A stretch of DNA of 63,555 nt, the filler included, from Reticulomyxa filosa (taxonomy: Eukaryota > Protista > Foraminifera), in NCBI GenBank assembly GCA_000512085.1. It is 17 parts of 17 records of this genome, joined end to end, with 100 filler letters (N's around TTAATTAATTAA, not from the genome) between each part and the next. Parts side by side here need not be neighbours in the genome. Positions count along the whole stretch, not along the records: positions 13,302 to 16,253 come from ASPP01003321.1; 16 more parts are not named here. One strand, given 5' to 3'. Below the pieces are notes generated by a model that was not told the origin of the DNA, searched no databases, and saw nothing but the letters and a program-made list of their open reading frames with translations. How positions within the stretch are numbered: the stretch's first letter is position 1; every line of letters starts with the position of its first letter. Below are positions 9,106 to 16,874 of this stretch, one piece after another. Made by a program: the position numbers and the translations under genes.

Positions 9106-10563
9106 TTGAATTTCTTGGAAGCGACGCGAAGTAATTATCAATATTTGGACGACAACAGCCGCAATGCCATAGGCTATGTAAGTGAGAACGACAACGACGA
9201 GCTGCTCGTCGACCCCGAGTACGGAAAGCACTATTGTCACGCGAGCGAAAAGTATCGAAGTCAGGTGCTTCGCGATCCTTGCGACGGACGACCGGTGTAC
9301 GAATGGCAGGTCCCATTTGGATTGGATGAAGCACATGGATACAAAGATGGTTTGTATATTTCTTTTTTGTTGTTGTTAATTTTGCCATGTCAGATAATAT
9401 ATAAATATAAATATATAAAACGCTATCAGTATCAACGGCAGTCGATGTTCTTGGAAATGAAAATGCTTTAAAAAACACCAACTTTGAATGGAAAGAAGGC
9501 ACAACACAAGGAAATGAAATAACACTGACTCATCCTCATCGAAATCAACAAGTCATTTTATGCACCGAACAAAATGCAGCCAAAGTCATTAGCGCTGTGC
9601 AACCGCATACTGTTGTCGTTGAGTCAACTTGTTTCTTTTTCTTTTCTTTTTTTTTTTTTTTAAAGTTTATAAATCGGCTAATCCAATTGTCACATAACGT
9701 AATCCCATTGTGCGTGTCCAGTTTCAACGTGGTGCGGAATTGCTACTGAGCAATTTGACGCATCGATTTTCGCCCACTTTCTTGACTGATTTAAATGGGT
9801 GTGCTCTGGCATCCGCATGGAGTGCGGCCTTCTATTTGAGCCCATTGTGGCCGGAAGCCACCTTTGCGAGCGGCTTGCTTGGCCTTGGCTTATTGGCTGT
9901 CAATTATCGGCTGTGGAGTGACGTCACTTTCAGTAAAAAAGACCTGAAACAGGCCTTCAAACAATGCCGGAAAAATCAATGCAATGTCGTGCTGGGTGAT
10001 TGGATGGCTGAAGACTATGAAGAACGAAAGGATTATCTCAAACGATTCGATGACTTTGCAACTTCGTCTCAACACTCAAAACCAACCAGTCCCGGCTTGG
10101 CTGTCAATAACATCTCCACAACTAATCTTAACACTTCACCGGCCTTGGAATATGTCAAATCCTTGGTAAGCCAACCCAAAGCTCAATTGGATGTCAATGC
10201 CAAGTTATTTTTTTTTTTTTTTTTTTATCTTGTAATGTTTATGTGAAAATTAAACAAAAGAGGGATATACACATACATATGTGTACATATGTATATATGT
10301 ATCTGTGTATATATGTGTATAGAGAAAAAGATGTCATTCGAACTTATCATGACGCATTACTGAATCGTAGAATAGATGTTTTTGCACATGTGATTAACAA
10401 TGTTGAGGGAGAAAAGATTGTTGTCCCCATCCGCGATATTGATGACGCACCTTTGTCGTGGGTTAGCAGAAATTTAGTCAAGAGGTTGACTGGCGCTTTC
10501 CCAATCACTAAATCTCCACTCAAATTTGATCCCTATTTCGAACGTGTTGAAGTCGCATTTTAA
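9106..10563 (+). CDS. Multi-exon protein with divergent TraB/PrgY-like domain (5' truncated)
   Basis: The exons give KVISAVQPHTVVVES (cf. TraB ..PDxVxVEL), LKQAFKQCRKNQCNVVLGD (cf. EFxxA..A......VVLGD) and DALLNRRIDVFAHVI...EKIVVPI (cf. L..ERD..MA..L...VVAVVG). Confidence 0.45.
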
Positions 10564-11977: not shown

Positions 11978-13856
11978 NNNNNNNNNNNNNNNNNNNNNNN
12001 NNNNNNNNNNNNNNNNNNNNNTTAATTAATTAANNNNNNNNNNNNNNNNNNNNNNNNNNNNNNNNNNNNNNNNNNNNAACATCTTTATAACGTATATTTA
12101 ATATTTATGCATACGTGTGTGATATAATGTTGATTGAACTTTTTGAATAGATCTTTAAAGGTATGCAAATGGAAATGGGCAAGTTGTTGCTGTTCATATT
12201 ACTATTGGTGCTGAAGTGAATCCAAAGCAATAATGGTAATAGTAATAGCAGCGGCGTACATTGCTTATGGATCATGGTATAATTTGAAAAAAAAATAAAG
12301 TGCTCATTATTGATTGAAAGTGGTGAGCTGTGCAACCTATGTTCCAAGTTATAATATTTTTTTATAATGTGATTGGAGAATACTTGAAATACGTATACAC
12401 ACATATATAACATAGGTCTCAAAGAATACAATATATATCAATCGAACATTGAAAAGTGATGGTGATGCAGCAAGCAAAGGTGAAGCCAAACAATGCCAAT
12501 TTTGTGGTATTGCAAGTATTGATATTTGCCTCAAGTGTTGTTTGTTTGTCCTAATTGTAATTTCTTTTTGATTTTTTTATTTTAATAATTGAACATCTTC
12601 TCCATCTCACCTAATTTCTTATCAAATTATATTCATTCCAAAAAATTTCTAAATTTGAATATTTTGAGTCTAAAAGAATGTTCAAATCGAATCTATCTGC
12701 ATATTTGGTTTTCATTTGGGTCTTTGAAAAAACTCTATGATAATATGCAATGGACTATTCTACTATTTAGGGTTGGTGCCAAAAAAAAAAAGTGCTCTAA
12801 AAGAGCCCACGCGAAAGCGTCAACTGTACGAAATAGGAATTGATTTTCTCACTGTTCTTGGCAAAAAGACCACGAATAGTATCTTCTTGCTATCAAGAAT
12901 ACCTACAAGAGAAAGGAACAAAAAGAGAAAGTATAGTCTGAATCCAATGAAACCAATGAAAGCAAAAATGGCAGTAATGTTGTGATTGAAGTCGGGGAGA
13001 TATGCAAATTCTTTGGCCATAAAAATGAACAAAGGACTATGAAAATTCCAAAGAGAGCTTTCTAAAAAAAAAGATATCACTCGTAGTTTTGTTTGATAAT
13101 TGATTGTAATTGTTGCAAGAGACAGTAAAACATTACAGCTCAAGTACTATAATTGCGAGCGTATTTGATGTGTTCTTGACGTTTCCATGTCACAATTAAT
13201 ANNNNNNNNNNNNNNNNNNNNNNNNNNNNNNNNNNNNNNNNNNNNTTAATTAATTAANNNNNNNNNNNNNNNNNNNNNNNNNNNNNNNNNNNNNNNNNNN
13301 NAGTGCACAGCTTGACATAGTTATGTGTGTGCATTCCCGTTGAAACAGTTGTGTCCTTGCTGTGGTGTTGCTCTTCAAATTCGGGATCATTCAGCAGTGC
13401 TCGACGCAGCAAGTAGTCGCTCTTTTGCGCATCGTTTAGGACCTTGTGTACGGATGGCAAGGTGTTGGTGACAGCTATCGTGATTTCTTTTTTGCACAAA
13501 TATTTTTATTCTTTTTACAACATTTTATTGAACTCAATAATTTTTTAAAAAAAATTTAACTTTGCGTTTTTACTGAAACGTTGTTTACCAAAAGTACGTA
13601 AACATTGTGAAAATTAACACAAATATTGCTTAACTAATGCTTTGCTTAGTGTAAAAATGAATTTTTTTGAAATCAATGATATGTATATTACGAAGCAATG
13701 AAATTCCGAAATTGGGATCATTGCGAAACTGAGTTAAAATGTAACTTAAACAGTAAATTAAAAACATAAAAAAAGCTTTAATCAACACCAACTACAAGAA
13801 AACAGTGAAATGAAACAAGAAGAAAATATGAACATTTTTGGTGTTAATTGTTCCAT

Positions 13857-16181
13857 TTAATTGTCATTTGTGATCTGGTTAAGAACTAAGTCCGTGACTA
13901 CGTGAGGACGGTTAAGTTTTTCGCTGGTGTTTAAATCTTTCAGACAACGATCGCTGGCCAAAATAGTTTGAGAAAAAGACTCTGCATAGTGTTTGGCATA
14001 TTGAATTGGCGAAGGCTGTGCAGTGCCTCCCAACGGGAAGGGGACACTAAAAGCAAACATATACGTCAGGCCAAAGACAAATTGAAATAGATCCATTGCA
14101 GAGCCTTTGGCAGCTGCCTTGTCGTTGGCCAAGTTCAGGCCGTCTAATAGTACAATATAACGAACAGGCCGTGTTTTTTCTTTTTTAGAGCGATGATAGC
14201 CAAAAATGATGAAATCCCATAAACGATCGGATAAGACATGATCAAACACAACGCACGGTACGTCTAATTGTCTGACTGAGACAGTGTGTTCGTCCCATTT
14301 TCCAAAGCGATCGATTGTGTTTTTATTGCAAAGCAGGTACTCTAAGGCAGGCCTCCATTTTTTTAACTTCCAAGCGTCTCGAAACATGCTCAATGCACGT
14401 TGAATTCCGACAACCTCTTTGGTAAACAACTCTTGGATTTGGCCATCGGCAACACCATCTCGAAAGATCCAAATGCAACCAGGCAAGCTTTTTTTCTCGC
14501 GAAGCGTGGCTTGGTATCCCTCTTCAAGTACCTGATACATTACGTTCACCATATTGGAAAACCCAACGATCTCTTTTCGACTGGGATTTAAATCTGTTCA
14601 CAGTGCACACTCAAGTTTTTTTTTTTTTTTTTTAAATAACAAAAAAAAAACAGAGACTTTGTGTTAATTTTAAAAAAAAAAAAAAAAAAATAACAATAAC
14701 ACGAAACGGCATAAGAAATGCATCTGTCGGAGTGATCCTTGAAAAGGGTCTCGCGAAAGGCTGATCATGACCACCGAGGGTTTGTTGACCACGTGGGATA
14801 CGTCGACACCTACAACCCAGCAATCATTGGGATTGATAAAAGTGGCTCCATGTGGCAAACAAGGATTAATGCGATAAGGAACATTTCCAAACTTGATCAT
14901 GATATCCTCAAAAGTGCCCAAACAGGCATTATTGTTATTGCAAGTGGCAGCTTGAATGCACTGGACCATGACCGGAACAGGGAAATTGGGTTTTTGCACC
15001 GCTTTGGTAAAGCGAGCTTTGACCTCGCTACCGCGAATGCCTTCGGGGAGTATGAGCACTAAAAACTCGTCTCCACGTCGCACCGTGTCGTTGTAGAAAG
15101 ACTCGTCCATCAGGTCGGACACAGGACGAGGCTGCGGACATAAAATTGGACCTGTTTCGAAATCGAACCTTCGTTTTTTGCAATACTCCTCCCAAGCGTA
15201 TACAAAAGATTGATACGACTTTTCATCGTTCTTAGTGCGGTCACGAGGATTGCTTTCGAATACGACCCCCCATTGTCGCAGTTGTTTCGTGCCGTCCAAA
15301 AAGCCACGACACAAACTGTACTTAAAATTATCCACCGGATTTTCTATCGGTCCTTCGTCGCTGTAAATTATTATCTTTGGCATTTGCAATACGTACGCCG
15401 GAGTTGTCATCGATTCCTCTTCGATTTCAAAATCAATGTCCAATTTGTCACTCTCGTTATCGACGTCGATACGTACATTGCTATTCTTACCCTCCTCCTC
15501 TTCTTCCTCTTCCTCACTATTGATCGAATTACTCTTACTTTGGTCTTTGGCTTTGTTTTTATTTCTGCTTTTTTTATTTGCTTCCGCTTTGCTGCTATGG
15601 TGTTGACTAATTTGTTGCACAAAGTCTTCAATACGACTCAATCGTTCTTTGGTGGAAGGATTGACGTACTCCAATACGTTTTCATACACCGCGTCGGACT
15701 GTTTCGATGTGATCGTCAATCGAATGTGCTGTGGCAAAAACACTGCTCCGCCTTTGTCCTTCACCACGCACATTTCTTGCTTTGGTGATTTGATCCCATA
15801 CGTTTTCTGCAAATAGTCTTTGTATGATATCTTTCCCCCACTTTGCAACTCAAAGGAACTGTGTTCGCTTTGGCTCCAATCCAGGCTATGCAACTGTAAG
15901 TTCCGCTTTTGATACGATAGCAAAAAATGTCGATTTATCAATTCACGCTCTGCCCTCTCTCGAAATTCTTCTATGCTTCGGCTTTGTTGGCGCATCAATT
16001 CCAACCGTTCGTTCACCTTTTTTTTTTTTTTATTAAACATATCTCATGCAAGTGTATATACGTATAAACGTATACAAAACTGTCGCTCTCTCAACCAGTT
16101 TGTGCGATAAATCCGCTTTGAACACTGTCCATTGTTTGTCACCTCGTTTCGGTAAAATACGCATTGAACACTCAAATCCAC
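13857..16181 (-). CDS. Divergent PIWI/Argonaute protein #1 (L1-PAZ-L2-MID-PIWI; N-terminus truncated by contig end)
   Basis: L1 GFECSMR...KADLSHKLVERATV; PAZ FELQSGGKISYKDYLQKTYGI...AVFLPQ; MID VQCI...IMIKFGNVPY; PIWI VVGVDVSH, RKEIV (after the intron at ~14595-14706), IFRDGVADGQ, RPVRYIVLLD, LTYMF and PSPIQYAKH. Confidence 0.92.
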
Positions 16182-16353
16182 TAATTATTGCCAAAAAAAA
16201 AAAAAAAAAAAAAAATAGTATGTTATTTAGTAAGTAAGTTTAAATTAGTTAAGNNNNNNNNNNNNNNNNNNNNNNNNNNNNNNNNNNNNNNNNNNNNTTA
16301 ATTAATTAANNNNNNNNNNNNNNNNNNNNNNNNNNNNNNNNNNNNNNNNNNNN

Positions 16354-16874
16354 TGCAGTGTTCTCCTTGGGAATCAAAACCTGAAAACTTGCACAATTTT
16401 ATGGAAAAAATTCAGCCAGATTATGGATGGGGAAATAAAGCAATTGAAGTTGGATTGGCTCATGTCAATAGAGAAATTGAGAAAGGAGAAGTTTCGCAGG
16501 TTATTTTAATTGGTGATGCTTCAGCAAATACAAAGGAAGAGGTATTGAGCAAAAGAAGCACCCGAGGAGAGCAGTATTGGAAAAATACGAAATTATTTCC
16601 CACTCCCACATACTGTGAAAATGAACTTAGTCGTTTGAAAAAACATAATGTTCCTGTTCATGCCTTTTTTACTGGAATCTTTGCAAAACAAGGTTTTGCA
16701 GCTATAGCCACAGCTACAAATGGCCGATGCGAACAATTGGACATTAATTCAAATAGAGGCTCAGAGCAATTGACTGATCTAGTCTCTGAGGAAGTTCTCA
16801 GAAATGCAGGAGGTGCAAATGGAAACGATTTTGTGGAAGCATACCGAGCCAAATTCTCGAAATCATTTACTTGA
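16354..16874 (+). CDS. von Willebrand factor A-like domain protein, C-terminal part
   Basis: GWGNKAIEVGLAH...VSQVILIGDA...VPVHAF...FAAIATATNGRC fits the second half of a VWA Rossmann fold. Confidence 0.7.

Follow-up and report, generated by a model that had tools for sequence, protein, structure and literature searches.

The window analysed here, a stretch of 63,555 nucleotides (filler included) from Reticulomyxa filosa, contains 16 paired N blocks that are joins between separate short contigs, so that gene neighbourhood across them is meaningless. One contig (2952 bp, positions 13302..16253, bounded by N linkers) carries the R. filosa gene named 'Argonaute-2b' (ETO33529.1, P0001), which was matched via its last exon; all features of the gene given below lie on the minus strand. 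The first exon within the window belongs to the L1 region (16081..16180; 74% over 39 aa by tblastn to the intron-free orthologue P0003), is preceded by an AG acceptor at 16182-16181, and is not part of the NCBI model ETO33529.1. It is followed by a 64-nt GT-AG intron (16017..16080), placed by comparison with P0003, and by an exon that encodes PAZ, L2, MID and the first catalytic Asp (14708..16016; Pfam and spliced frame). A second GT-AG intron of 114 nt in phase 1 (14594..14707), whose junction is common to P0001 and the orthologues, leads into the last exon, which encodes the rest of the PIWI domain, a C-terminal extension and a stop at 13859-13857 (13857..14593; spliced frame and Pfam). With both introns removed the frame is continuous over 714 aa and has its only stop at the end, and the product shares 412 identities over 742 columns with P0003, both junctions being gap-free. 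Pfam recognized a Piwi domain (E 9.3e-13) and an approximate PAZ domain (15729..15983; PF02170, E 6.7e-12) whose best matches among solved structures are the PAZ domains of PIWI proteins. Because the gene runs off the right end of the contig and is thus truncated at its 5' end, its N domain lies outside the window, within which tblastn found no second piece of the gene. Judged by sequence comparison, the NCBI model (13634-16043) appears to start inside the first intron and to splice away the natural stop; its tail adds about 50 residues unlike those of any relative. (Note that open frames of 172 residues at 16356-16874 and 182 residues at 9698-10246, both on the plus strand of neighbouring contigs, matched no Pfam family at E 0.01.)

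The initial annotation of this locus had pointed to a charged insertion in L2. A charged, low-complexity loop is indeed present (15444..15605), but both its length and its sequence vary among relatives and it is not a feature of the family: between anchors it spans 61 residues here, 26 in the orthologue P0002, 29 in P0003, 19 in the R. filosa paralogue P0023, and 8-83 across the other rows measured.

Relatives were collected with HMMER, and the best 150 of 2069 matches were taken. A first tree, comprising 94 of 167 matched proteins (each covering at least 255 of 424 MID-PIWI columns) and built with trait columns dropped but with the pocket K and T columns left in, contained a 59-row clade with SH support of 99. 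A second tree, built under a mixture model from a realigned 60-row subset with eight trait columns dropped, recovered a deep clade of 37 rows with support of 100/100, in keeping with the earlier proposal of an Argonaute subfamily. Monophyly of the members that carry Lys at the fourth tetrad position (the Lys group) received SH support of 90 and 85 in two trees; in the mixture-model tree the group split into 5 and 16 rows. Species labels for 4 of 20 matches checked were Nonionella stella (three matches, two inside the clade and one outside) and Bolivina argentea (one match, P0062). Four clade proteins are from R. filosa, and besides the locus described here there are at least three clade pieces in this species, namely P0010 (RFI_27655), P0023 (RFI_27243) and P0179 (RFI_07127). 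(P0023 and P0179 represent different halves, possibly of one gene that is split between contigs.) All named clade members are foraminiferan, and the remaining rows are environmental sequences. Argonautes with a DEDD tetrad were found in Nonionella stella (P0043, P0071 and P0080), and a single foraminiferan has both a DEDD PIWI-like protein with a canonical pocket and DEDD proteins with a rebuilt one. In other branches of the clade the tetrads are wholly degenerate and the rebuilt pocket is kept.

Scans of other collections returned little. A metagenome DNA scan gave 1 locus from 168 pattern matches, the ESM Atlas gave generic Piwi clusters only, and in a prokaryote scan (GTDB) that used a PIWI-like alignment as query rather than the clade's own, 1 of 17 matches was a canonical HrAgo1-like gene. 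An archaeal MAG contig (L002:1254-5577) encodes an HrAgo1-like Argonaute with a DEDH tetrad (299 bits to 8R3Z) that is directly flanked by two genes for RNase III, one of them including a dsRNA-binding domain, with a Snf7 gene nearby; this neighbourhood suggests a Dicer-like source of guides. Our literature searches, which covered few subscription papers, found no description of the clade.

Three tetrad residues named in the initial annotation lie where it had placed them: the first Asp (GVDVSH, 14802..14804), the Glu finger (RKEIV, restored by splicing, 14571..14573) and the second Asp (FRDGV, 14457..14459). The 60-row alignment also places an equivalent of His600 (14795-14793), and an Arg668 equivalent is present; at 14319..14324 the alignment gives a retained Lys709 equivalent followed by Asn in place of Arg710. 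(Residue numbers for human AGO2, Piwi and Siwi are those of the cited literature.) The fourth residue is the Lys of YAKHYA (13992..13994), as had been proposed. In profile alignments this Lys aligns gap-free with the His of YAH in solved PIWIs, and in the independent 60-row alignment it occupies the column in which all controls have Asp or His, such that the controls read DEDH or DEDD and the R. filosa protein reads DEDK. The orthologues likewise read YAKH, not YAH. Thus the network of a canonical slicer is represented by its first three tetrad residues and by His600, Arg668 and Lys709, and what has been replaced is the metal-binding His or Asp at position four.

Position four is occupied by Lys in 29 of the 33 rows of the Lys group, by Ser in three, and is missing in one; the tetrad is exactly DEDK in 21 of these rows, eight of which are close orthologues. 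A His follows directly (13989..13991), and the initial annotation took it for a catalytic residue shifted by one. A local slip of the helix register could in principle make this His the fourth ligand of an ordinary DEDH-like slicer, and the residue is common enough in the Lys group (27/33 rows) to suggest as much. But the same His adjoins the Asp in DEDD members (4/5) and occurs in the degenerate group (12/14), the spacing between the preceding prolines and position four is unchanged from solved PIWIs, and in a model of P0003 (121 sequences; pLDDT 89.4, pTM 0.91) the Lys lies within an unbroken helix, residues 922-937. We therefore consider a register slip very improbable. Because canonical DEDD and dead relatives also have His at this place, it is not a displaced catalytic residue, and row counts and rates indicate a clade-typical and probably non-catalytic one. 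In the mixture-model tree the DEDD rows diverge before the Lys rows, a placement with modest support (89/69). The history would most simply be a change of Asp to Lys beside a His that was already there and had no catalytic part.

Column rates were estimated for 28 Lys-group rows (tree length 20 substitutions per site). The slowest 3-5% of columns include the second Asp, His600 and the fourth-position Lys; Lys709 ranks at 12%, the first Asp at 18% and Glu at 24%, and the Arg668 equivalent is also slow-evolving. In 19 degenerate rows, by comparison, the second Asp and His600 rank at 51-57% and position four at 89%, a contrast that is partly circular given that these rows were selected by their tetrads. 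Relative to PIWI-like rows, the second Asp, His600 and Glu evolve at similar rates in the Lys group, and the first Asp and Lys709 somewhat faster. These slow rates bear on the notion that the gene is decaying or mis-assembled and that its substitutions are drift, as might be imagined from the contig end that truncates it and from the degenerate tetrads of several paralogues. That notion is refuted for the family and scarcely credible overall, for the reading frame is intact, and the same odd residues recur in paralogues of about 35% identity and in orthologues, one of which lies on a contig (L001) without introns.

The pocket that receives the guide 5' end has been altered as well. In the alignments human AGO2 Tyr529 corresponds to a Lys (15018..15020) and Lys533 to a Thr (15006..15008), and an Asp occupies the position that is Lys566 in AGO proteins and the metal-binding Gln in PIWIs (14904..14906); the equivalents of Gln545 (14961..14963) and Lys570 (14892..14894) are kept in the 60-row alignment. 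The MID motif YxxxK, reported as replaced in the initial annotation, thus reads KxxxT. In canonical rows Tyr and Lys stand 16 and 12 residues before the conserved Gln, and the clade members with the shortest loops have Lys and Thr at these same distances; profile-profile alignment also supports this register. (An alternative MID register, with Gly at Tyr529 and Lys533 retained through a chance E-V-K match, was one helical turn off according to later alignments.) In the same columns of the 60-row alignment the controls read YKQKK or YKQQK and the clade reads KTQ[D/N]K. Across the 33 rows of the Lys group, the first position is Lys in 27 and the second Thr in 25 and Ser in two (six gaps at each), the third is Gln in 30, the fourth Asp in 16 or Asn in 13, and the fifth Lys in 32. 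These pocket positions rank within the slowest 1-4% of columns, and their residues persist in catalytically degenerate relatives as well. Lys is in register and the pocket is KxxxT, rather than a catalytic His being paired with a normal MID domain.

In PIWI proteins the fourth pocket residue, a Gln, coordinates a metal jointly with the C-terminal carboxylate; its AGO counterpart is Lys566 (PMC7015924, in the text available). Here the C-terminus is extended, as the initial annotation had it: 44 residues follow the fourth-position Lys, versus 25-31 in 7/7 animal-type PIWI rows. Tails after position four run to 34-266 residues in 32/33 Lys-group rows, and to 25-40 residues ending in Leu or Ile in 24/26 PIWI-like rows (the other two being truncated or unaligned). 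Structural alignment of the P0003 model ends at residue 958, against 858 in human AGO2 and 898 in Siwi, and for this reason the His or Gln of an R-P-H/Q motif probably occupies the place of the usual terminal residue; in the R. filosa protein this is the His of R-P-H, followed by a 14-residue extension (13860..13910). The tail beyond (model residues 969-992) is of low confidence. We infer that the Asp stands in for the lost C-terminal carboxylate, an idea that rests on essentially one evolutionary event; two basal clade rows combine a long tail with the Gln. The metal-dependent 5'-phosphate pocket of PIWIs (Y, K, Q, a Gln ligand, K and the C-terminal carboxylate) is therefore represented here by K-T-Q-D-K and an extended C-terminus.

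Of the remodelling claimed for this pocket, the change of two of the four classic MID residues stands. The result is still basic and polar, with Lys, Thr, Gln, Asp and Lys at the five positions, unlike the MID-OH pocket of MpAgo with its hydrophobic replacements as described in the accessible text of PMC6299218. That difference matters for the suggestion that the pocket is specialized for guides without a plain 5'-monophosphate, such as 5'-triphosphate products of an RNA-dependent RNA polymerase or 5'-OH guides, which would be compatible with either view of slicing. We regard this as rather doubtful. Two of the four YKQK residues and the C-terminal carboxylate have been replaced throughout the clade; nematode WAGOs (HKQK) load 5'-triphosphate RNAs, a link that a review terms a hypothesis (PMC12908457, as excerpted), and PliAgo, in the part of PMC9360449 available, needs neither metal nor C-terminus to bind guides, and shifts register. 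On the other side, the Gln545 and Lys570 equivalents are kept in 30/33 and 32/33 rows, and two Lys residues remain in the pocket.

By similarity and fold the protein is of PIWI type. The clade profile scores 246-202 bits against PIWIs (MIWI, EfPiwi, MILI and Siwi), 172 against HrAgo1 and 148 against human AGO2. The architecture N-L1-PAZ-L2-MID-PIWI and the fold are those of the long Argonaute superfamily, the N domain being seen in the orthologue only. The P0003 model aligns to AGO and PIWI chains alike with Z of about 27-30 (for 7ki3_D, Z 29.3, rmsd 3.2 and 579 aligned residues), so that fold comparison does not tell the two groups apart. The description as PIWI-clade-like accordingly holds for similarity, and membership is another matter: the best tree, which lacks an independent root, places the clade outside the PIWI and HrAgo1-like rows (98/96), and the AU test does not reject a topology that nests it with ten protist-type PIWI rows (p-AU 0.099). 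Nor does the clade look like AGO, with Asp in the 566 column and six AGO rows grouping apart (100/99). The trees contained no identified WAGO or trypanosome sequence. Taken as modelled and aligned, the protein would be PIWI-type by fold and similarity and yet depart from the PIWI pocket; similarity is not membership.

What such a protein might do can be proposed from comparison. The chances seem to us slightly better than even that it is a binder guided by RNA, which slices little if at all and whose phosphate pocket has been rebuilt; the fold is complete in the full-length orthologue, and conservation extends to the D-E-D-K column, to the K-T-Q-D-K pocket and to the longer C-terminus. The fourth residue normally binds one of two catalytic metals, a ligand that Lys would remove, and because the Lys is strongly conserved it may now clamp a target phosphate, perhaps in place of the lost Arg710. 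The guide 5' end would still be a phosphate, gripped by two Lys and a Gln, with Asp supplying the metal carboxylate no longer given by the extended C-terminus, and loss of the stacking Tyr may have changed the preference for the first base or 5' end. Guides would then be held in an undescribed way. Silencing would proceed through recruited partners, as in Drosophila Piwi, and cutting might be left to DEDD or DEDH paralogues such as those of Nonionella. These pocket and metal assignments are read from aligned columns and are meant as candidates.

Precedents for the proposed loss of slicing come from the available text of PMC7015924, where slicing is almost abolished in Siwi H874K (DEDK) and absent from Drosophila Piwi (DVDK). 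Of the altered 5'-end preference or chemistry that had been put forward, the remodelled MID pocket is borne out, and the Piwi and Siwi precedents favour a loss of cleavage over an altered chemistry. The initial annotation cited DEDK from some prokaryotic Argonautes, and Drosophila Piwi provides a eukaryotic precedent for Lys at position four. In human AGO2, D597 and H807 coordinate Mg2+ at the scissile phosphate, and R710A slows cleavage 12-fold in one report (PMC11893014, in part) and has an effect of about 20-fold in another (PMC11643337, in part). Counter to the binder reading, the tetrad is exactly DEDK in 21/33 Lys-group rows, a single engineered mutant need not predict how a natural, co-evolved site behaves, and Drosophila Piwi has also lost Glu and His600, both of which are kept here.

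A natural DEDK slicer is a live rival, to which we would give a minority chance, since the catalytic network is otherwise retained. Here the Lys ammonium would replace one catalytic metal or Arg710, and D-E-D, His600, Arg668 and Lys709, all present in this protein and slow-evolving in the Lys group, would complete the chemistry. The first Asp and Glu tend to be lost jointly, in 2.4 of the 3 independent pairs, a number too small for statistics, and reviews count K among the residues permitted as X in DEDX (10.1101/366930; PMC9360449), the accessible review text naming no tested DEDK enzyme. Against such a slicer, beyond the near inactivity of Siwi H874K, Arg710 is gone from most Lys-group rows, being kept in 5/33 versus 5/5 DEDD rows. 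Moreover, the Lys persists without the first Asp: among the nine Lys-group rows that lack this Asp, Lys stays in five, Ser is found in three and one is truncated, and the R. filosa paralogue RFI_27655 (EDGK) keeps the Lys though its first Asp is lost. Since Lys is kept in such rows, it does not depend on a working site. A bolder combination, which we judge unlikely, is that Foraminifera have, besides AGO and PIWI, a further deep family of eukaryotic Argonautes. Its DEDK members would be true slicers in which Lys does the work of a catalytic metal, and its K-T-Q-D-K pocket, no longer tied to the C-terminus, would read a new kind of guide 5' end.

On the binder reading or any other, the clade presents DEDD, DEDK and degenerate tetrads on a common scaffold, a natural series for probing the role of the fourth residue; DEDK is quoted as an allowed tetrad with no tested natural example in the literature examined. 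To our knowledge nearly all eukaryotic Argonautes have the YKQK pocket and a buried C-terminus, and the clade provides a test of guide anchoring without the terminal carboxylate, in addition to an Argonaute that could be tagged at its free C-terminus. PIWI-clade proteins bind piRNAs of 24-31 nt. Foraminifera reorganize their nuclei drastically, and a PIWI transcript, its paralogue unspecified, is reported to be up in the Zerfall stage of Allogromia (10.64898/2026.10.21.760831, in part). Given that reorganization and that transcript, the Argonaute expansion may have to do with how foraminiferan genomes are controlled.

Precedents exist for Lys at position four, but the literature searched offered none for a whole clade in which it occurs together with a K-T-Q-D/N-K pocket, an extended C-terminus and an intact D-E-D network. 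The rhizarian Argonautes studied so far, according to the accessible part of PMC13547706, are Plasmodiophora PbAGO1/2, which belong to the same supergroup and, unlike the protein described here, are reported as AGO-clade with canonical DDH; that part makes no mention of foraminifera. Nematode WAGOs (PMC12908457) resemble the clade in being a lineage-specific expansion with a changed first pocket residue and differ in retaining the second Lys, though they were compared by description in the available text, their kinship lying outside our trees. Among prokaryotic Argonautes, TtAgo (RKQK) likewise has a basic residue instead of Tyr, and PliAgo (PMC9360449) is independent of its C-terminus, as far as the texts examined describe them. 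Unlike those of TtAgo, MpAgo and PliAgo, the R. filosa gene is eukaryotic and intron-containing. Its pocket is not hydrophobic, and none of the variants named in the portions of the prokaryotic Argonaute literature examined is K-T-Q-K. Drosophila Piwi (PDB 6KR6) and Siwi H874K are alike in being eukaryotic, PIWI-type and equipped with Lys at position four (PMC7015924, in part). Piwi itself, however, has a canonical Y-K-Q-Q-K pocket with a metal held by Gln589 and the C-terminus, whereas the R. filosa pocket is rebuilt. The PIWIs (MIWI, EfPiwi, MILI and Siwi) together with Asgard HrAgo1 are the best profile matches and have the same domain order and fold; from these the clade differs in having KxxxT, Asp or Asn for the metal-binding Gln, Lys at position four and no terminal hydrophobic residue.
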